Shown here piece after piece: positions 843 through 40,318 of a stretch of 64,000 nucleotides of DNA (positions are counted from its first letter, which is position 1; each line of letters starts with the position of its first letter). The notes beneath the pieces are model-generated. The model saw only the letters and a list, made by a program, of their open reading frames with translations. It searched no databases and was not told the origin of the DNA. The DNA is from an archaeon (GTDB lineage Archaea; Undinarchaeota; CAZHTU01; JBDRCC01). Location of the stretch: contig JBDRCC010000020.1 in NCBI GenBank assembly GCA_043822065.1, positions 32,001-96,000 on the forward strand, given 5' to 3'. The position numbers and the translations under genes were made by a program.

Positions 843-2135
843 ATGGGAAAAACAGAGGGCATAATTCGGCGTGACAAGAGAGTTATCTCGCCATCTTTCG
901 CACGCTCATCGCCCGTGGTCTTTGAAAAAGGGAAAGGCTGCTACCTGTGGGATGTTGAAGGCAAGAAGTACCTGGACTTCCAGAGCTCCGTCACAGTGTG
1001 CGGCGTCGGCTACCAGAACCCGGATGTCAAAGCTGCAATCCGCAGCCAGCTGGACAAGCTGATGAACTGCAACTTCCCGGACTACTACTCCGAGCTGCCT
1101 GTGAAGGTTGCTGAAAAGCTGGTCACCAAGGTACCGATTCCAGGCCAGAAAAAGGTCTTTTTTGCAAACTCCGGCACCGAGTGCGTCGAGTGCGCGCTCA
1201 AGCTTGCGCGCTGGCATACCGGGAAGACAAACCTAATAGGGTTCTATGGGGACTTCCACGGCAGGAGCTACGGAGCGGTCAGCCTGACCTGCTCGAAAAA
1301 GCTCCAGCACCAGGGCTTCGAGCCGCTGCTGCCGGGCGTGAAGCACAGCCACTTTGCATACTGCTACCGCTGCCCCCTTAACCTGGAGTACCCAGGGTGC
1401 GGTGTCGCTTGCGCGGATTACCTGGAAGAGGTTGTGCTAACCGATTCTCCGCCAGAAAACACGGCTGGGCTCATCTTTGAGCCAATACAGGGCGAGGGAG
1501 GGTACATAGTCCCACCCAAGGAGTTCCTCCCGCGGGTGCAAAAAATCTGCAACCGGAACAAAGTCCTTTTCATCAGTGATGAGGTCCAGACCGGGCTGTG
1601 CCGGACTGGCAGGTGGTCTGCATCAGAGGTCTTCAAGATAAAGCCCGACGTTGTCCTGCTGTCCAAGTCAATAGCCAACGGCATGCCCTTCGGGGCGGTG
1701 ATTGCGAAAGAGAAATACATGCGCTGGCCCTCCGGGAGCCACTCCAACACCTTCGGCGGGAACGCGCTCGCATCAGCTGCGTCGCTCGCCGTGATAAATT
1801 ATATGGAGAAAAAGCGGCTGTGGAAGAATTCAGAACAGGTGGGCAAATTCGCGATGGAGCGGCTGGAGAGGATGAAGGAAAAATACCCGATAATCGGCGA
1901 TGTGAGGGGGAAAGGGCTCATGATTGGCGTTGAATTCATTAAGGACAGGAAGAAGACGCCGGCAGTGAAGGAACGGGACAAGATTGTGAAAACCGCCGTC
2001 CTGGAGGGCTTAATCCTTCTCGGCTGCGGCAAGAGCGTAATCCGGATAGCCCCGCCGCTTACCATAACCGAGGCGGAGATGGAAAAGGGGCTCAACTTGT
2101 TTGAGAAAGCGTGCAAGAGCGTGCGGACGTCCTAA
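843..2135 (+). CDS. Class III PLP aminotransferase (ornithine/4-aminobutyrate-like)
   Basis: NSGTE, FHGRS, EPIQGEGG, DEVQTG, PLP lysine in LSKSIANG, HSNTFGGN. Confidence 0.9.
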   Translation: MGKTEGIIRRDKRVISPSFARSSPVVFEKGKGCYLWDVEGKKYLDFQSSVTVCGVGYQNPDVKAAIRSQLDKLMNCNFPDYYSELPVKVAEKLVTKVPIPGQKKVFFANSGTECVECALKLARWHTGKTNLIGFYGDFHGRSYGAVSLTCSKKLQHQGFEPLLPGVKHSHFAYCYRCPLNLEYPGCGVACADYLEEVVLTDSPPENTAGLIFEPIQGEGGYIVPPKEFLPRVQKICNRNKVLFISDEVQTGLCRTGRWSASEVFKIKPDVVLLSKSIANGMPFGAVIAKEKYMRWPSGSHSNTFGGNALASAASLAVINYMEKKRLWKNSEQVGKFAMERLERMKEKYPIIGDVRGKGLMIGVEFIKDRKKTPAVKERDKIVKTAVLEGLILLGCGKSVIRIAPPLTITEAEMEKGLNLFEKACKSVRTS

Positions 2136-3097
2136 AACGCAGTTTTAGCCTTTAGTCCCTGGCCCCGTAGACTGATTTCAGCCATCACGCACTTGCCGTG
2201 CACGACCTCGATGCCATTGTTTTTGCTGAAACCGATGGCTTCTCCCGATTCCGAGCTAGGCTGCATCCACACCTTCTTTATTTCTGCGTCCTTGCACGCC
2301 CTGACGATTTTTTCCGTGACCTGCGGCGAGACGACAATGTCCACAACATCCGGCTTCTTCGGCAGGCTCTTCAGGTCAGGGTAGCACTTGCGCTCCAATA
2401 TCTTTTCCGCATTAGGATTAACTGGATAAGCCTCGTATCCCTGCGCCAGCAGGAACTTGAAAATTTTATGGCCGTATTTTCTAAAATTTGCCGAAGCCCC
2501 CACTACGGCATAAACATTTGTTTTCTCAAGAAACTTTTTTACCAGCGCCGCGTCGTCCTCGAAGCTCATCCCCATCTCATGCCACTCTGCGCCGCCGTGG
2601 GTGGACGCCGACTTGCCAGTGTAAACAAAGCCGAGCTTCCTGTAGTAATCAACCATGTTTTCCTTGCATATCAGCAGGACCTTTTCTTTTCCGAGCCCTT
2701 TGGAAATCTCCACAAACCTCTCGACCAGCCGCCTCGAAACCCCAAGCCCCCTGAACTCCGGCAGGACTGCGACAGTGAACACGACAACATTCTTCCCGCC
2801 CGGAACATGGCCAACCATGCCCTTCAGCTCCTCTGCACTGATGTCCTCCTTTTCTATTGTGGCGCCGTTTATTATGCCGATTATTTTCCCGCCCAGCTCG
2901 GCGACAAGAAATCCCTCTGGGAACAGCTCAATCCTTTTCCTGAACTTTTCCTCCGAAGCCACCTCAGGTGGAGGATAGCACCTGTCCTCAACAATCCACG
3001 CTGCATGCAAATCAGCCAGCCGCACCTGCCTGATGATTATCTCGTCCGGGCTCACCCCAATGCCCTCAGAAGCAGAGGTCACGTTTGCCATCTTCAA
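2132..3097 (-). CDS. GNAT acetyltransferase fused to a CoA-binding (YccU-like) domain
   Basis: VAVLPEFRGLG and STHGGAEW in the N-terminal part; VVGASAN, YPVNP, VWMQP in the C-terminal part; start uncertain. Confidence 0.8.
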   Translation of the reverse strand: MKMANVTSASEGIGVSPDEIIIRQVRLADLHAAWIVEDRCYPPPEVASEEKFRKRIELFPEGFLVAELGGKIIGIINGATIEKEDISAEELKGMVGHVPGGKNVVVFTVAVLPEFRGLGVSRRLVERFVEISKGLGKEKVLLICKENMVDYYRKLGFVYTGKSASTHGGAEWHEMGMSFEDDAALVKKFLEKTNVYAVVGASANFRKYGHKIFKFLLAQGYEAYPVNPNAEKILERKCYPDLKSLPKKPDVVDIVVSPQVTEKIVRACKDAEIKKVWMQPSSESGEAIGFSKNNGIEVVHGKCVMAEISLRGQGLKAKTAF

Positions 3098-4454
3098 GCT
3101 CCTTAAGCCGCTTTATGGTCAGCTCCCGCCTCTTTTTGCCCTCAATGCCCTTTAGCTGGTCCTCTATGACATTGTCCCCGAGTTTCCTCAGCTCTTCATC
3201 TGCATAGTCCAGCAGGTACTCCTTGAAAGTCAGAAGCGAGTTCGGCAGGCAGAAGTTCCTAATCAGCCCCGGTTTTGCCATGTCCATGAAGTCCTTTCCA
3301 GTCCTTCCCAGCCGGTAGCAGGCGGTACAGAAGCTCGGGCTGTAGCCCATCTTGCAGATGTCCTCCACAATTTCAGCCATTGACCTTGAGTCATGAAGCG
3401 TGAACTGCTCCGCATCCCCTTTGCTGTCCTCCGAATACCCGCCGGGGTTCGTCCGCGAGCCCGCGCTTATCTGCGAGATGCCCAAGCCGAAGACCTCGTT
3501 CCGCATCTTTGCAGTTTCCCTTGTAGACAGAATCATCCCAGTGTATGGGACCGCCAGCCTGAGTATTGCAACCATCTTCTTGAAGTCGCCATCCGAAACA
3601 GGCGCCGGCGGCGTGCATGCGGCGGGCGCGTTCAGCGCCGGCTCGAGCCGCGGGACGGAAATCGTGTGCGGTCCGACGCCATACTTCTCGTCAAGGTGCT
3701 TCGCGTGGTATAACAATCCCATGATCTCAAACTTATAATCATAAAGCCCGAACAGCGCGCCAATCCCGACGTCGTCAATCCCACCCTCCTTGGCGTTATC
3801 CATCGCATATAGCCTGTTCAGGTAGTGCGACTTCGGCCCAGAGACATGCATCTTTTCATACGTCGGGCGGTGGTAGGTCTCCTGGAACTCCTGGTATGTC
3901 CCTATCCCCTTCGCTTTGAGCCTCCTGTAGTTCTCGACGGTCTGCGGGGCAATGTTGATGTTAACCCGCCGTATCTCCCCCTTCCCGACCTTCGTCGAAT
4001 AAACAGTGTCAATAGCGTTCTCGAGGTACTCAATGTTCGCGGTGTTGTTGTCTTCTCCAGCGACAAGCAGGAGCCGCTTGTGTCCCTCCTTTTCGAGGAG
4101 CTCGACCTCGCGCCTTATTTCATCCGTTGACAATACCTTCCGTTTCAGCTCCTTGTTGTCCTTCCTGAAGCCGCAGTAAAGGCAGTTGTTTACGCAGACG
4201 TTCGTCAGGTAAAGCGGCGCAAAAAATACCAGCCTCTTGCCGTAAATATCCTCCTTTATCTTCCGCGCCGCAGTGAAAATCTTCTGTATTACTTCTTTGT
4301 CCTCTGTCTGGAGCAGGACGGCTGCCTCCGCCGGCGCCAGCCCCTTCAGCTTGAGCGCCTTTTCGACAACAGCAAGCGCTTCCGCGTGTGAAGCCTTCTT
4401 CCCCCTGGCAAGCTCTTCCTCTATTTTTTTCTGGTCAATGAAGCTTTCCATCAT
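3066..4454 (-). CDS. hydG: [FeFe]-hydrogenase maturase HydG (radical SAM)
   Basis: CVNNCLYC; GPHTISVPR; C-terminal CX2CX22C (CTAC-22aa-C), which short ThiH lacks. Confidence 0.9.
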   Translation of the reverse strand: MMESFIDQKKIEEELARGKKASHAEALAVVEKALKLKGLAPAEAAVLLQTEDKEVIQKIFTAARKIKEDIYGKRLVFFAPLYLTNVCVNNCLYCGFRKDNKELKRKVLSTDEIRREVELLEKEGHKRLLLVAGEDNNTANIEYLENAIDTVYSTKVGKGEIRRVNINIAPQTVENYRRLKAKGIGTYQEFQETYHRPTYEKMHVSGPKSHYLNRLYAMDNAKEGGIDDVGIGALFGLYDYKFEIMGLLYHAKHLDEKYGVGPHTISVPRLEPALNAPAACTPPAPVSDGDFKKMVAILRLAVPYTGMILSTRETAKMRNEVFGLGISQISAGSRTNPGGYSEDSKGDAEQFTLHDSRSMAEIVEDICKMGYSPSFCTACYRLGRTGKDFMDMAKPGLIRNFCLPNSLLTFKEYLLDYADEELRKLGDNVIEDQLKGIEGKKRRELTIKRLKELEDGKRDLCF

Positions 4455-5740
4455 AATCCCAAGTCCGTCGGAGCCCTTCCCAGCCTCTTCAGCAGGGCTA
4501 CGGTCTCATCGACGCTGTCCGCAGCCTCCGAGCCGCTTCCTGCCTTGTCCGGGTATATTGAATACAGCATCTTGTACTTTTTAGGCGTGACGTTAACCAT
4601 CAGCGAGTTCCCGCCAGACTTAAGCCCCTTCTCCTTCCCTTCCCTGCCAAGTGTCTCGACAGCAGTCGTTACAAGTATCTTCGCGTCCGGCTGCATAAGC
4701 CTTGAAACAGCGAGCGCCTTCATAGCCAGCTCCAGCGGCGGCTGCGCCTCCTTTCCCAGCGGCGTGTCAGGGTGCGGGATGAACGGCCCGAAGGAGTACA
4801 TCTCAGTCCCGAGCTCCTTTGTAAGCGCGATATCATTAACCAAGTCATCTTCCGTCTGCCCAGGAAGCCCAATCAGCCCCCCTGTCGCGATAAGGTAGCC
4901 CATCTTTCCAATCTCGCGTATCAGCTTCACCTTGTCTTCGAGCTTTTCTCCGGGGTGCAGCTTTGCATAAAGCTTAGGATTCGATGTCTCAAATCTCATC
5001 AGGCACGCCCTTGCGCCGGCGTCATAGAACTTCCTGTACGATTCCGCCGGCCTGTCCCCGAAGCTCACGAAAATCAGCGCACTGCACCTCTTCCAAACCT
5101 CGCGCACTACCCTTGCCAGGTCTTCGTCCGAATAATAGTCATCCTCGCCTGACTGTAAAACAAACGCTTTGAACCCAAGCTCCGTCGACGCCTTTTCCGC
5201 GGCTGCTATAATCTCGTCTGGCTCCATCCTGTACCTCTTCAACTCCTTGTTTCCTGCCCTCAGCCCGCAGTACTGGCAGTTCTGCTTGCAGTAGTTTGAG
5301 AACTCGATTATCCCGTGGACGCAGCATGCGTTCCCAAGAGCCCGGTGCCTCACCTGGTTTGCAGTCTCGTACAGCAGGCGGAGCTCGTTTTTGTCGGAAG
5401 TCTCCATCAGCCTGAGCCCGTCAGCCAAGCCCAAGTCAGGCGTCTGAGACGCCCTGTTGATTATCCGCCTAAACTCGCCAGAAACCTTTATGTCGTGGAC
5501 CTCTGCCTGCGCCTCGTCAGCTCCCTTCAGCTGGAAGAACAGCTCCCTCCATTCCTTTAATATCTCAAGCGCCTCATCCCCAGGTATCTTCCCCACGATA
5601 AAACCGCCCTGGGCGTAGACATATTCGCCAACTTTAGGCATTATAAGGTCCGCCCTTGCTTTCCTTATCTCGCCAAAATACTCAACATCAGCGTTCTGCC
5701 CGCTTATCGCAGCAACTCTGCCGGGTATCGCATAGCACAT
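4451..5740 (-). CDS. hydE: HypC/HupF-like domain fused to HydE-type radical SAM protein
   Basis: N-terminal MCYAIPGRV...VGEYVYAQGGF; CKQNCQYC; GPFIPHPDTPL; YSIYPDK; overlaps hydG start. Confidence 0.8.
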   Translation of the reverse strand: MCYAIPGRVAAISGQNADVEYFGEIRKARADLIMPKVGEYVYAQGGFIVGKIPGDEALEILKEWRELFFQLKGADEAQAEVHDIKVSGEFRRIINRASQTPDLGLADGLRLMETSDKNELRLLYETANQVRHRALGNACCVHGIIEFSNYCKQNCQYCGLRAGNKELKRYRMEPDEIIAAAEKASTELGFKAFVLQSGEDDYYSDEDLARVVREVWKRCSALIFVSFGDRPAESYRKFYDAGARACLMRFETSNPKLYAKLHPGEKLEDKVKLIREIGKMGYLIATGGLIGLPGQTEDDLVNDIALTKELGTEMYSFGPFIPHPDTPLGKEAQPPLELAMKALAVSRLMQPDAKILVTTAVETLGREGKEKGLKSGGNSLMVNVTPKKYKMLYSIYPDKAGSGSEAADSVDETVALLKRLGRAPTDLGL

Positions 5741-5800
5741 GCTATCCCTTTACTACCGTATTATAAATAATTTCTGCCCAGCCGCAACGCCGATGCAATA

Positions 5801-5818
5801 AGTTAGGCAAAACTAACT
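5801..5818. promoter_or_regulatory. DtxR/MntR-type operator 1
   Basis: Inverted repeat AGTTAG-GCAAAA-CTAACT upstream of the DtxR gene. Confidence 0.7.
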
Positions 5819-5838
5819 CTACAGAACATTTATATACA

Positions 5839-5856
5839 AGTTAGCCTAAACTAACT
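5839..5856. promoter_or_regulatory. DtxR/MntR-type operator 2, between TATA (5829-5836) and start codon
   Basis: Inverted repeat AGTTAG-CCTAAA-CTAACT, near copy of operator 1. Confidence 0.7.
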
Positions 5857-5861
5857 CTCCA

Positions 5862-6272
5862 ATGAAAAACAAAACGCGAGAGGACTACCTTCGTGCAATA
5901 TTCCTAATCTACGAAACCCAAACTAGAAACCTGGCTGGGGTAAAATCAGTCGATATCGCGAAATCCCTGGCGGTTTCAAAGCCGAGCGTTTCCAGCATGG
6001 TTTCCAAGCTTTCAAAGGAGGGGCTTGTCCGGGCTCATCCCTATGGATTGGTATTCCTTACAAAGAAAGGGATCTCTGAGGCAAAGAAAATAACAAAAAA
6101 GCACAGGGTAATCGAGGTTTTCCTGACTGATATCCTTGGCTACGCGATTAACGAAGCAGAAGACGAGGCTCACCGGCTTGAGCACGCGTTTTCTGACGAG
6201 TCCATAAAACGGCTCTCTAAGTTCCTAAACAATCCACGGAGGTGCCCGCATGGCAACAGAATCTATAGTTAG
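5862..6272 (+). CDS. DtxR/MntR family metal-dependent repressor
   Basis: EDYL, HTH, KHRVIEVFL, EAHRLEH, CPHG. Confidence 0.92.
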   Translation: MKNKTREDYLRAIFLIYETQTRNLAGVKSVDIAKSLAVSKPSVSSMVSKLSKEGLVRAHPYGLVFLTKKGISEAKKITKKHRVIEVFLTDILGYAINEAEDEAHRLEHAFSDESIKRLSKFLNNPRRCPHGNRIYS

Positions 6273-6519
6273 CAAGGTCCCCCTTACCTCCATAAAACCC
6301 GGCGAAAAAGCAGTTATAAAACAGATACATGGGGGCGTCGCCGCAACACAGCGGCTTACGGATATGGGGCTTACAATCGGAACAGAAATTGAAGTTACGA
6401 AATGTGCCCCCTTCCTGGGCCCGGTCTGCATACGCGTCCGCAACTCCTGCCTTGCGATAGGCTATGGGCTCGCTTCAAAGATTTCTGTGGTGAAGAAACT
6501 TGAACGAAAAAAAGCTTAG
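6250..6519 (+). CDS. feoA: Ferrous iron transport protein A
   Basis: RLTDMGLTIG, APFLGPV, LAIGYGLA; precedes feoB. Confidence 0.9.
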   Translation: MATESIVSKVPLTSIKPGEKAVIKQIHGGVAATQRLTDMGLTIGTEIEVTKCAPFLGPVCIRVRNSCLAIGYGLASKISVVKKLERKKA

Positions 6520-8419
6520 GATAGTGCTCGCTGGGAATGCCAACGTCGGCAAGAGCGTCCTCTTCAACGCCTTAACCGGCATGCACCAGCACATAGGCAA
6601 CTGGCCCGGAAAGACCATAGAAAAGGCAGAGGGCACTTTCTACTTCCATGACTACTTAATAGACGTCATAGACCTCCCAGGCATCTATTCCCTCTCCACC
6701 TTTTCAATCGAGGAGAAGATTTCCAGGGATTATATCGCCTTAGAAAATCCAGACGTCGTAATAAACGTTATAGATGCCTCTGTGCTTGAACGAAACCTTT
6801 TCTTCACCCTCCAGCTAATCGAGATGGGCGCCCCTCTCGTCGTTGCACTAAACCAGGTGGACCTAGCCAAGAAGAAAGGGATAACAATCGACCACGAAAA
6901 ATTATCAGAATTGCTTGGCGTCTCTGTTGTTCCGACGGTTGCAATCAAAGACAAAGGCATATCCGCGCTTCTTGCAGAGGTCGTTTCAGTTTCCAAACAA
7001 AAACAAAGGAGGCATGAGCTAAAATACGGCAAACAGGTCGAAGAGAAGATATCAGAAATAAGCAGGCTTCTCAAAAAACACCCACCTCTCTACCCTCCAA
7101 GGTGGATGGCAATCAAGCTCCTGGAAAAAGACCATGAAATAACAAAGCAGGCAGACTCCTCAATAGTCTCAAGGGCGGGGGTTCTCTCAAAACAGCTCGA
7201 GAAAATCCATGGCGAGACCTCTAGTGCAGTGATATCTGGCGAGCGGTACTTCATCGCGTCTGGCGTTGCAAAAAAGACGATGAAAAAAATCGAATACAAG
7301 GAGACCCGTTCCGACCGGGTCGACTACTGGGCAACCCACAGGATATTTGGCTATCCTATAATGCTCTTTTCCGTCCTTTTAACGTTCTTCGCCATCTTTT
7401 CCTTTGGCAACTATGCCTCCGAACTAATGGTCTCCTGGTTCGCTAACAGCCACCTCCTTGTTAACCTGGTCTTCGGCAGCGGCGCGTTATCCGAAATTGT
7501 ATGGAGCGCATTGGAGGGGCTGATTGCCGGCGTCACCATCGCACTTCCATACATCATCCCTTTCTACGTCGCCCTCTCTCTTCTCGAGGACACGGGATAC
7601 CTCTCAAGGGTCGCCTTCCTAACGGACAAGATAATGCACCAAATCGGATTGCACGGAAAGGCGTTTATCCCGCTCATACTCGGCTTTGGGTGCAACGTCC
7701 CTGCCTGCCTTGGCTGCAGGATAATGGAGCGCTACCGTGAGCGGTTCATAACCGCTTTTCTCGCGACCCTCGTGCCGTGCGCCGCGAGGACGGTCATCAT
7801 TATGGGGCTGGTTGCCGCGTATGTCGGCTTCGAATGGGCGATTGCCCTCTACCTTTTCGACATACTCATAATCTTCTTGCTGGGGAAGCTTGCAAACCGC
7901 GTGATGCCAGGCGAGCCGGTCGGGCTCATACTCGAGATGCACGCCCTCAGGAAGCCCTCAATAAAAATAGCGTTCAGCCAGGCGTGGTTCCGCGTGAAGG
8001 ACTTTATAACCGTGGCATTTCCAATAATCATAGCCAGCAGCATCGTAATAAAAATATTCGATATCTTCGGCCTTCTTACAAAACTCTCTGACCTGCTTTC
8101 GCCCGTAACGGTAGGATGGCTCGGCCTTCCATCCATAGTCGGGCTAATCCTAATCTTCGGGATACTGCGAAAGGAGCTTATCCTAATCATGCTCGCAACA
8201 CTTGTCGGCACCACCAACTTCGCTTCGGCGCTGAGCCCGCTGCAGATGCTAACTCTTGCCATTGTTACCATGCTCTACGTACCATGCGTCGCAACAATAG
8301 TGGCCCTGAAGAAGGAATTTGGCTGGAAAAAGGCAATCGGGATATCCGCTTTCGAGGTATTTTTTGCGATACTTGTTGCAGGCCTCGTGATGAGGGTGCT
8401 GGCGTTCGCTGTTTTTTGA
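6500..8419 (+). CDS. feoB: Ferrous iron transporter B
   Basis: [31 protein letters not shown], many TM helices. Confidence 0.96.
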
Positions 8420-18115: not shown

Positions 18116-18201
18116 CGCCGGGAGAGGGATTTGAACCCCCACGGGCCAAAGGCCCATACGCTCTCGAGGCGTACGCGTTAGCCAGATTCTGCCATCCCGG
18201 C
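18116..18201 (-). tRNA. tRNA-Ser(CGA)
   Basis: Acceptor GCCGGGA/TCCCGGC, discriminator G, loop CT-CGA-GA, long variable arm, GGTTCAAATCC. Confidence 0.93.
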
Positions 18202-34959: not shown

Positions 34960-35060
34960 TGGGCCTGGAGAGATTTGAACTCTCGACTTCCAGCTATCCT
35001 AGGATGTACAGAGTACAGCCATATAAGACTGGCACTCTAACCAAGCTGAGTTACAAGCCC
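34960..35060 (-). tRNA. tRNA-Ile(UAU) with 26-nt intron at 37/38 (34996-35021)
   Basis: Acceptor GGGCTTG/CAGGCCC-A; CCAGT-CT-TAT-A[intron]A-GCTGG; T-arm GAGAG-TTCAAAT-CTCTC. Confidence 0.85.
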
Positions 35061-37560: not shown

Positions 37561-37668
37561 GGGCTCGTGGCGAAATGGTATCGCGCCGCCTTCGCATAAC
37601 ATTTTCTTTTAGAAAAGGAAAGCGTTAGGAAAAGGCGGAGGCTGCGGGTTCAAATCCCGCCGAGTCCA
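37561..37668 (+). tRNA. tRNA-Ala(CGC) with 36-nt intron (37597-37632)
   Basis: Acceptor GGGCTCG/CGAGTCC with G3:U70; CCGCC-TT-CGC-A[intron]A-GGCGG. Confidence 0.92.
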
Positions 37669-40201: not shown

Positions 40202-40318
40202 TGGGCCTGACCGGATTTGAACCGGTGACCACCTGATTTCCACCCCTTTTCATTTTGCTTCCGGCTTTCTGAAAAGGCGATATCAGTCAGGCACTCCACC
40301 AGGCTGAGCTACAGGCCC
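40202..40318 (-). tRNA. tRNA-Ile(GAU) with 43-nt intron (40238-40280)
   Basis: Acceptor GGGCCTG/CAGGCCC-A; CCTGA-CT-GAT-A[intron]A-TCAGG. Confidence 0.92.

Follow-up and report, generated by a model that had tools for sequence, protein, structure and literature searches.

A HypC-HydE Fusion Encoded beside HydG: a Candidate Replacement for HypCDEF in the Maturation of [NiFe] Hydrogenases of Uncultured Archaea and Bacteria

Introduction

In the maturation of [NiFe] hydrogenases, the HypCDEF proteins make an Fe(CN)2CO unit, for which cyanide is derived from carbamoyl phosphate via HypF and HypE, and Cys2 of HypC helps to carry this iron-CO/CN unit. In the textbook view, such maturation strictly requires HypC, HypD, HypE, and HypF, and the origin of the CO ligand in anaerobes is a long-standing question. 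In the [FeFe] system, HydG makes an Fe(CO)2(CN)-cysteine synthon, HydE processes the synthon, and HydF is the scaffold. Parts of both systems are joined in a 64,000-nucleotide stretch of DNA (the window) from an archaeon of the Undinarchaeota (NCBI GenBank assembly GCA_043822065.1, contig JBDRCC010000020.1, positions 32,001 to 96,000 of the forward strand), where a gene encoding HypC fused to a HydE-type radical S-adenosylmethionine (SAM) domain is directly followed by hydG. The initial annotation of the window, made from the sequence alone, had proposed that the HypC domain might be a tethered Fe-CO/CN carrier, giving an HydF-independent route to the H-cluster, a shunt into [NiFe] maturation, or a different organometallic cofactor. 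Based on the gene content and gene order of genomes carrying the fusion, we suggest, with a probability of roughly 0.65, that the Fe-CO/CN unit of [NiFe] hydrogenase is supplied by HydG and HypC-HydE in place of HypCDEF. We favor this reading because a [NiFe] large subunit (LSU) is encoded in 49 of 50 carrier genomes while HypD, HypE, and HypF are encoded in none, and because of the synteny with [NiFe] genes and the mutual exclusivity of fusion and HypD in the Omnitrophota.

The system had been put forward as undescribed, and this largely held: no published description of HydG/HydE-dependent [NiFe] maturation, or analysis of the fusion, was found in the literature outside subscription journals, apart from one passing mention. 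In its accessible part, a preprint (bioRxiv 10.64898/2026.04.11.717937) names a fusion of HydE with HypC, described as unusual, in the [NiFe] operon of a Legionellales symbiont and counts it in the "full maturation machinery"; that part of the source states no role for the fusion and mentions neither HypD, HypE, nor HypF, and the term HydG is absent from the main text. Judging from the partial description and the gene order in Gammaproteobacteria and Coxiellaceae, the Legionellales fusion probably belongs to the same family as the fusion studied here. The component families are known; their combination and the proposed role are new.

Results

Domain architecture of the fusion protein and HydG

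Two minus-strand open reading frames (ORFs) account exactly for the interval 3066-5740 to which the initial annotation had assigned the pair, and the start of hydG overlaps the stop of hypC-hydE by 4 nt (Table 1). The in-frame junction was borne out by matches to both parent families on one 429-aa ORF. Residues 1-63 matched HupF_HypC (Pfam PF01455; E 1e-12, 48.4 bits against a cutoff of 28.5, and 52.5 bits in the genome-wide profile search), and the score with hypC_hupF TIGR00074 (NCBIfam), 45.7 bits, was slightly below the cutoff of 48; residues 95-420 matched HydE TIGR03956 (NCBIfam) at 284.3 bits against a cutoff of 254.6.

AlphaFold2 modeling of residues 1-80 from 78 sequences gave five strands followed by one long helix (predicted local distance difference test [pLDDT] score, 91.4), and the top ten PDB matches of this model in Foldseek were all HypC, the best being 2z1c_B (template modeling [TM] scores of 0.77/0.82), as expected if the N terminus has a genuine HypC fold. 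The protein starts with MCYAIPG, with YAQGGF further on. Residues C2, Y3, I5, P6, Y21, and Q44 were invariant both in 103 aligned full-length proteins and in 78 aligned N-terminal domains, and M1, A43, G45, and G46 were likewise invariant in the latter alignment; the retention of Cys2 read from the single sequence is thus a property of all aligned members. Among 120 listed homologues, the motif [MV]C[YF][ASTV]IP occurred within the first 80 residues of 119 and at residue 1 of 115 (P0029 starts later). The HypC domain was N-terminal in every fusion member, which fits the need for a free N-terminal cysteine. The replacement of the VHxG histidine, also recognized in the initial annotation, was confirmed by alignment to Thermococcus kodakarensis HypC (2z1c; E 6.4e-10), in which Gln44 of the YAQGG segment takes the position of the conserved His; in three HypC proteins of solved structure, the residue aligned with Gln44 is this His. 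In Escherichia coli HypC, this conserved His (His51, fourth strand) is reported as required for iron binding.

The HydE-type part retains the features of canonical HydE. Pfam placed Radical_SAM at residues 145-304, together with BATS; the radical SAM motif CX3CX2C begins at residue 151, and Thermotoga maritima HydE chains were matched at 263 bits. The AlphaFold2 model of the full-length fusion (103 homologues; pLDDT, 94.1; predicted TM score, 0.92) superimposed on T. maritima HydE 3cix with a target-normalized TM score of 0.93 and a root mean square deviation of 1.9 Å at 38% identity. A shorter fusion of 392 to 393 aa, in which the stretch linking the HypC helix to the HydE core is reduced by ~40 residues, was observed in Planctomycetota, Elusimicrobiota, and some Omnitrophota (proteins P0031, P0036, P0058, P0078, P0089, P0093, P0094, and P0115; loci L026, L032, L059, L061, L085, and L087).

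The adjoining gene product scored 565.4 bits with HydG TIGR03955 (cutoff of 312) and matched the solved HydG 4wcx (Thermoanaerobacter italicus) over its full length at 585 bits. Both HydG motifs were present, CX3CX2C at residue 87 and the auxiliary-cluster motif CX2CX22C, noted in the initial annotation, at residue 376, and from these sequence features the protein looks fully canonical. In a metagenome-assembled genome (MAG) of the Nitrospiraceae, HydG is itself part of the fusion: a 906-aa in-frame HypC-HydE-HydG triple fusion (L050:10001-12721, plus strand) lies two genes downstream of HycI, which itself follows the [NiFe] LSU. Two Nitrospirota proteins labeled "partial," P0014 (727 aa) and P0038 (575 aa), resemble this triple fusion, as does a 917-aa ORF in G220. 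With these matches, all three profiles proposed for the pair (HupF_HypC, HydE, and HydG) recognize it.

A large and conserved family in archaea and bacteria

Scanning one genome per species (185,579 species) yielded 372 loci encoding a relative, of which the best 80 were kept. Both Pfam domains were found in all 120 listed homologues, query included. The nearest listed homologue, 76% identical, is named Undinarchaeota, and the other archaeal carriers are named Aenigmarchaeota, Altiarchaeota, Micrarchaeota, and Nanoarchaeota; bacterial carriers are named Margulisiibacteriota, Saganbacteria, Elusimicrobiota, Planctomycetota, Nitrospirota, and Gammaproteobacteria, with Patescibacteria and DPANN also among the carrier lineages. 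The fusion is a large conserved family, neither a chance junction nor an archaeal oddity. Accordingly, the description of the pair as an archaeal operon stands for the window and is too narrow for the family, since the same fusion is common in bacteria. Some matches at related loci span ~1.9 kb rather than ~1.3 kb (L014, L020, L022, L028, L035, and others), probably as a result of merging with tblastn hits to HydG, the paralogue encoded next to the fusion.

Gene content of carrier genomes

To compare maturation genes, 50 carrier genomes from the 80 kept loci were profiled, with longer contigs preferred and one locus per isolate. HypD was found in 0/50 genomes, as were HypE and HypF over their cutoffs, while a [NiFe] LSU was found in 49/50 and HydG over its cutoff in 47/50. 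HydA was present in 7/50 and HydF over its cutoff in 5/50, the HydF-bearing carriers being a subset of the HydA-bearing ones. In the [NiFe] controls E. coli, S. elongatus, M. jannaschii, and M. acetivorans, HypC, HypD, HypE, and HypF all scored. The same pattern was given by the single-contig chromosome records G013 and G033, which indicates that incompleteness is not the cause, and by the free-living-size genomes G031 and G032 (4.1 and 4.9 Mb). Three carriers with HydA encode ORFs of 532 to 551 aa whose similarity to HypF is confined to its C-terminal half (positions 377-739; 125 to 133 bits, far below the cutoff), at G032:C9:460835-461929, G039:C7:42692-43792, and G048:C67:58657-59757; these may be carbamoyltransferase-like proteins.

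Within the Omnitrophota, the phylum of carrier G011, 201 evenly drawn genomes were surveyed, 76 of which had an LSU match. HypC lay inside an ORF of 372 to 917 aa in 24 of the 201 and was free (66 to 184 aa) in 49, and HypD was found in 50, with no overlap between HypD and the fusion. All 24 genomes with the fused form have an LSU, and none has HypD or a free HypC, while HypD is present in 48 of the 49 genomes with free HypC. The 76 LSU-bearing genomes thus divide into 24 with the fusion, 48 with HypD, and 4 with neither; in one of these four (G212), a free HypC is encoded close to the end of a contig. A Fisher test on this tabulation gave a P value of 5e-16, a figure that is overstated because related genomes were counted as independent.

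The fused form was also found in 10 of 201 genomes of the Micrarchaeota (the phylum of G013), each time as the sole HypC match. In many Micrarchaeota genomes (G319, G324, G327, G336, G340, G342, G367, G371, G379, G421, G444, and G456), a second HypC-like match, in an ORF of 170 to 245 aa or, in two cases, 61 to 94 aa, was observed ~0.3 to 1 kb from a HypC of normal length, which points to another HypC-like architecture besides the fusion. Among the 17 genomes of the window's own phylum, only G000 carries the fusion, with HydG and without HypD; G052 and G053 have free HypC and HypD and no HydG, with HypD directly beside HypC in G052.

Gene neighborhoods of the fusion

ORFs were called and clustered in the best 80 loci, and the cluster representatives were annotated with Pfam; neighbors were counted in 78 of these loci, L037 and L069 being omitted as their MCY-type start was not called. 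At least one of [NiFe] LSU, small subunit (SSU), HycI, and HypA was encoded within 10 kb of the fusion in 43/78 loci (LSU in 37, HycI in 29, SSU in 25, and HypA in 21), so the survey of distribution and neighborhoods that the initial annotation had called for linked the fusion to [NiFe] genes. HypA stood directly upstream of the fusion in 16 loci, HycI did so in 9, and a HydG-like gene adjoined the fusion in 35/78. The usual bacterial order was HyhB-HyhG-SSU-LSU-HycI-HypA-fusion-HydG, and in an alternative layout, HycI-HypA-fusion came after a group 4 Mrp/Mbh-type cluster. Other common neighbors were a Fer4_22 protein and an FAD/NAD protein, which correspond to HyhB and HyhG of group 3b-type enzymes, and both Cys pairs were retained in 28 aligned large subunits. 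After the hydrogenase genes, the next neighbor clusters were Rex, found in 14 loci, and a response regulator, found in 11.

In Gammaproteobacteria and Coxiellaceae (L018, L023, L040, and L065), HypA and HypB are followed by HyhB-HyhG-SSU-LSU-HycI, a membrane protein, and the fusion. This membrane protein (cluster c13; 214 to 263 aa; a weak DsbD_2 match of 29.8 bits) immediately precedes the fusion in five loci, most of them gammaproteobacterial, where it follows HycI, and is found elsewhere in the cluster in two further loci (L018, L023, L040, L062, L065, L070, and L086 in all).

A separate HydE paralogue

The carriers with both HydA and HydF allow the fused HydE to be compared with the one that accompanies [FeFe] maturation. 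In all five such genomes checked (G011, G032, G039, G043, and G048), a second, unfused HydE was found (315 to 362 aa; 293 to 365 bits on TIGR03956), which adjoins HydF and HydG in G011, G043, and G048. The fused copies of the same genomes scored 243 to 259 bits, some fused members falling under the cutoff at 243 to 245 bits, and lie at most ~2 kb from a [NiFe] LSU in G011, G039, and G043. In a maximum-likelihood tree, the 78 fused rows were split from the unfused HydE by a branch with a Shimodaira-Hasegawa-like approximate likelihood ratio test value of 100; the tree contained only five unfused sequences, two of them on long branches. Fused and unfused HydE have 44 near-invariant columns in common, including the radical SAM cysteines, whereas Cys140 and His142 are invariant solely in the fused family, with Trp/Tyr and Arg at these positions of unfused HydE. 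By these sequence criteria, the fused HydE is a specialized paralogue, apart from the HydE that accompanies HydF and HydA. A canonical HydF was therefore far from a constant companion of the fusion: it occurs in 5 of 50 carriers, and where it occurs it has its own unfused HydE. Only one gene above the HydG cutoff was found in each of the five genomes, so HydG appears to be shared between both systems.

Hydrogenases and maturation genes of the window's own genome

The assembly from which the window derives comprises 1.03 Mb in 22 contigs and is 82% complete. A genome search for hydA, hydF, hypD, hypE, hypF, and [NiFe] subunits, suggested in the initial annotation, revealed two large subunits and none of these maturation genes or hydA. 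One LSU (427 aa) belongs to a group 3-like cluster on contig C22, together with an FAD/NAD subunit and a small subunit, and the other (390 aa) to a group 4 Mrp/Mbh-like cluster on contig C7. Both have an N-terminal R-x-C-G-x-C, a C-terminal D-P-C-x-x-C (four Cys ligands), and a C-terminal extension. The fused HypC is the sole HypC of this genome, in which HypA (79.5 bits) and HycI (61.8 bits) are also encoded.

In profile searches of the contigs of this 82% complete genome, HypD was not found, HydA (Fe_hyd_lg_C) had no match, and nothing scored above the cutoff for HypE or HypF. A HypE-model match of 56.9 bits was rejected as far below the cutoff, and a HypF-model match of 36.9 bits, also far below the cutoff, covered only profile positions 1-85 and lay in a short ORF. 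The absence of hydF, hydA, and hypD noted earlier for the window thus held for the window and extended to the available genome; a 45-bit HydF-model match in the window is the GTPase domain of FeoB and not a divergent HydF. A GTPase-type HypB was not found in the genome by tblastn with three bacterial HypB queries. A gene for a ParA/NUBPL-type ATPase directly follows hypA, and this ATPase likely substitutes for HypB; ATPases of this type serve as HypB in Thermococcales.

Discussion

Proposed mechanism

We suggest the following route from tyrosine to the [NiFe] site. HydG, whose motifs are those of the canonical enzyme, would cleave tyrosine and use its auxiliary cluster to assemble a synthon of the type Fe(CO)x(CN)y-cysteine. 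The HydE domain, with its conserved core, would take over the synthon and free the organometallic iron by radical SAM chemistry on the cysteine sulfur. The iron would remain mononuclear, being neither dimerized nor passed to HydF, and would be captured by the Cys2 thiolate of the tethered HypC domain; Cys140 and His142 may assist the capture, and we would guess that they form the hand-over site. The HypC domain could then dock on the apo-LSU and insert the iron, after which HypA and the ATPase-type HypB would add nickel and HycI would trim the C terminus, presumably in the order of the standard pathway. To reach Fe(CO)(CN)2, an exchange of CO for CN, or a HydG product with another ligand count, would be needed.

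The tethered carrier fed by HydG and HydE, as first proposed, is consistent with all findings, and it is comparative genomics that argues for it. Its suggested use as a shunt into [NiFe] maturation fared unevenly: the link to [NiFe] hydrogenase was strongly favored by the LSU counts, by the lack of HypD, HypE, and HypF in the carriers, and by synteny, while a parallel shunt was not, since the pattern looks like a replacement of HypCDEF. Beyond the individual genomes, we are modestly inclined to the broader view that this is a widespread second route to the [NiFe] site in uncultured anaerobes, in which CO and CN would both come from tyrosine via HydG and iron would be processed and delivered by HypC-HydE, with no HypD, HypE, or HypF.

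Several observations weigh against the replacement of HypCDEF. The ligand count is not simply matched: two CO and one CN are carried by the known product of HydG, as against one CO and two CN at the [NiFe] site, and the HydG of the window looks canonical. HypD provides the redox scaffold in the standard pathway, and nothing that could take its place is apparent; in addition, the His of HypC is replaced by Gln in every aligned fusion member. The hydrogenases of the window's own genome lie on other contigs (C22 and C7) than the fusion and hydG; more generally, archaeal loci are mostly bare fusion-HydG pairs, with hydrogenase genes at most 10 kb away in 5/22 by a manual reading of the locus listing against record titles rather than a scripted count. 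Among the carriers, G021 has the fusion and no LSU match, HydG is missing from G005 and G017, and G006 yielded nothing beyond a ThiH-like match of 221 bits. Moreover, the profiled genomes represent 50 of 372 loci and are mostly incomplete MAGs, the Fisher P value overstates the case because related genomes are not independent, and every functional step is deduced from sequence comparison.

Alternative explanations

Since both the fused HydE and HydG score as [FeFe] maturases, the pair might instead build the H-cluster without HydF, with the HypC domain as the scaffold. PMC11216029 reports that most archaeal genomes with [FeFe] hydrogenases are without HydEFG and seeks the route used in its place, and in G011 and G020 the fusion, HydG, HydF, HydA, and a [NiFe] LSU all lie within ~15 kb. 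Nevertheless, the window's own genome gave no Fe_hyd_lg_C match, only 7 of the 50 carriers have HydA, the conserved neighbors of the fusion are [NiFe] genes, and the separate unfused HydE of the five HydA/HydF genomes, which can stand beside HydF, indicates that the fused copy does not serve HydA there. We consider this H-cluster route, one of the three originally envisaged, very improbable. Another of the three, in which the pair makes a different organometallic or sulfur cofactor for an unrecognized enzyme and the [NiFe] link is indirect, for example through shared regulation in anaerobes, gained no positive support as a cofactor assignment and seems unlikely. It would accommodate the 35 of 78 loci without a hydrogenase-related gene within 10 kb and the mostly bare archaeal pairs, as well as the separate clade of fused HydE with its new invariant Cys140 and His142 and the lack of an LSU match in G021. 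It would, however, leave unexplained how [NiFe] hydrogenases mature in 49 of 50 genomes without HypD, HypE, or HypF; no gene family other than those of the hydrogenases recurs beside the fusion, the next clusters being those of Rex and the response regulator, and the only known role of the HypC family is to serve the [NiFe] LSU as a carrier.

A quite unlikely possibility is that the HypC domain acts on the LSU solely as a chaperone, for folding or holding, that the HydE chemistry is unrelated, and that Fe(CN)2CO comes from an unrecognized source or from a host or partner organism. Many carriers have reduced genomes and are probably symbiotic (DPANN and Patescibacteria), and with His44 lost the domain could have stopped binding iron, but the much larger genomes of G031 and G032 show the same pattern and Cys2 is invariant. 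Moreover, the presence of HydG in 47 of the 50 carriers, its position next to the fusion in 35 of 78 loci, and even its in-frame fusion are hard to explain unless the HydG product is the substrate. It is still less credible, to the point of being almost negligible, that HypD, HypE, and HypF only seem to be absent because MAGs are incomplete or wrongly binned, the fusion then being no more than an additional paralogue of HypC. Although the window's own genome is 82% complete, most of the others are fragmented MAGs, and the lack of a match is not proof of absence, the loss of three genes from 50 of 50 genomes is incompatible with a random loss of ~20%, and the single-contig records G013 and G033 are also without them; the detection of HypD in 48 of 49 Omnitrophota genomes with free HypC indicates that HypD is detectable in MAGs of such quality.

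Flanking genes in the window

The genes for a DtxR-family repressor, FeoA, and FeoB are divergent from hypC-hydE (Table 1); they are given as context, and membership in the system is not implied. The 121-bp intergenic region between the two transcription units (5741-5861) contains two near-identical 18-nt boxes, AGTTAG-N6-CTAACT, detected by an inverted-repeat scan and flanking an AT-rich, TATA-like stretch. The boxes may resemble those of DtxR/IdeR and could be operator sites for the iron repressor encoded next to them, in which case expression would depend on the supply of iron.

Directly downstream of hydG is a gene for a fusion of a GNAT acetyltransferase with CoA_binding_2, with an overlap of 32 nt between its first possible start and hydG. 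In none of the other 80 loci does this gene accompany the fusion, and it was left out of the system for this lack of conservation. In addition, Rfam identified four tRNAs in the window, of which ARAGORN reports only an 86-nt tRNA-Ser; the other three, of 101 to 117 nt, probably contain introns, a common feature of archaeal tRNAs.

Table 1. Features of the window discussed in this study (position 1 is the first nucleotide of the window)
Feature	Position	Strand	Description and evidence
hypC-hydE fusion gene	4451-5740	minus	429 aa + stop; ORF call, Pfam, NCBIfam, AlphaFold2, Foldseek
HypC domain, residues 1-75	5516-5740	minus	Pfam, alignment to 2z1c, model, Foldseek
HydE-type radical SAM domain, residues 95-429	4454-5458	minus	TIGR03956, CX3CX2C at 151-158
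hydG	3066-4454	minus	462 aa + stop; TIGR03955, 4wcx match, both motifs
DtxR-family iron-dependent repressor	5862-6272	plus	Pfam Fe_dep_repr_C, Fe_dep_repress
FeoA	6250-6519	plus	Pfam FeoA
FeoB	6500-8419	plus	Pfam FeoB_N/Gate/FeoB_C
18-nt box	5801-5818		Inverted-repeat scan
18-nt box	5839-5856		Inverted-repeat scan
GNAT acetyltransferase-CoA_binding_2 fusion	2132-3097	minus	321 aa
tRNA	34960-35060	minus	Rfam
tRNA	37561-37668	plus	Rfam
tRNA	40202-40318	minus	Rfam
tRNA	18116-18201	minus	Rfam

Implications and comparison with known systems

If the proposed replacement of HypCDEF is correct, the diatomic ligands of the [NiFe] site can derive from tyrosine, and HydG would supply both [FeFe] and [NiFe] maturation, linking the two systems in evolution. 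Hydrogenase surveys based on Hyp proteins would then misjudge many lineages of DPANN, the candidate phyla radiation (CPR), Omnitrophota, Margulisiibacteriota, and Planctomycetota. Moreover, these [NiFe] enzymes may carry a nonstandard set of CO/CN ligands, and a two-gene module might ease the heterologous production of [NiFe] hydrogenases.

Compared with HypC/HybG/HupF (2z1c; HypC-HypD-HypE 3vys), the N-terminal domain of the fusion has the same OB-barrel with a C-terminal helix, keeps the Met-Cys start and the GD-aromatic-V core, and is found in the same gene company of LSU, HycI, and HypA. Unlike HypC, it is joined to a radical SAM enzyme and has an invariant Gln in place of the His, and HypD, the obligatory partner of HypC, is missing from all 50 profiled carriers. 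The fold and the CX3CX2C motif of HydE (T. maritima 3cix and 7o1o) are likewise retained, whereas the fused form, unlike canonical HydE, carries a HypC domain and mostly occurs in genomes without HydF and HydA. HydG, the tyrosine lyase and Fe(CO)2(CN) synthon synthase, differs from its described counterparts in context only, standing beside HypC-HydE and [NiFe] genes and usually without HydF or HydA. With HypCDEF, finally, the proposed route would have its output and client in common, namely, an Fe-CO/CN unit passed from Cys2 of HypC to the apo-LSU before nickel insertion and proteolysis; unlike HypCDEF, it would obtain CO and CN by radical SAM cleavage of tyrosine and would dispense with both the HypD scaffold and the ATP-dependent transfer of a carbamoyl group.

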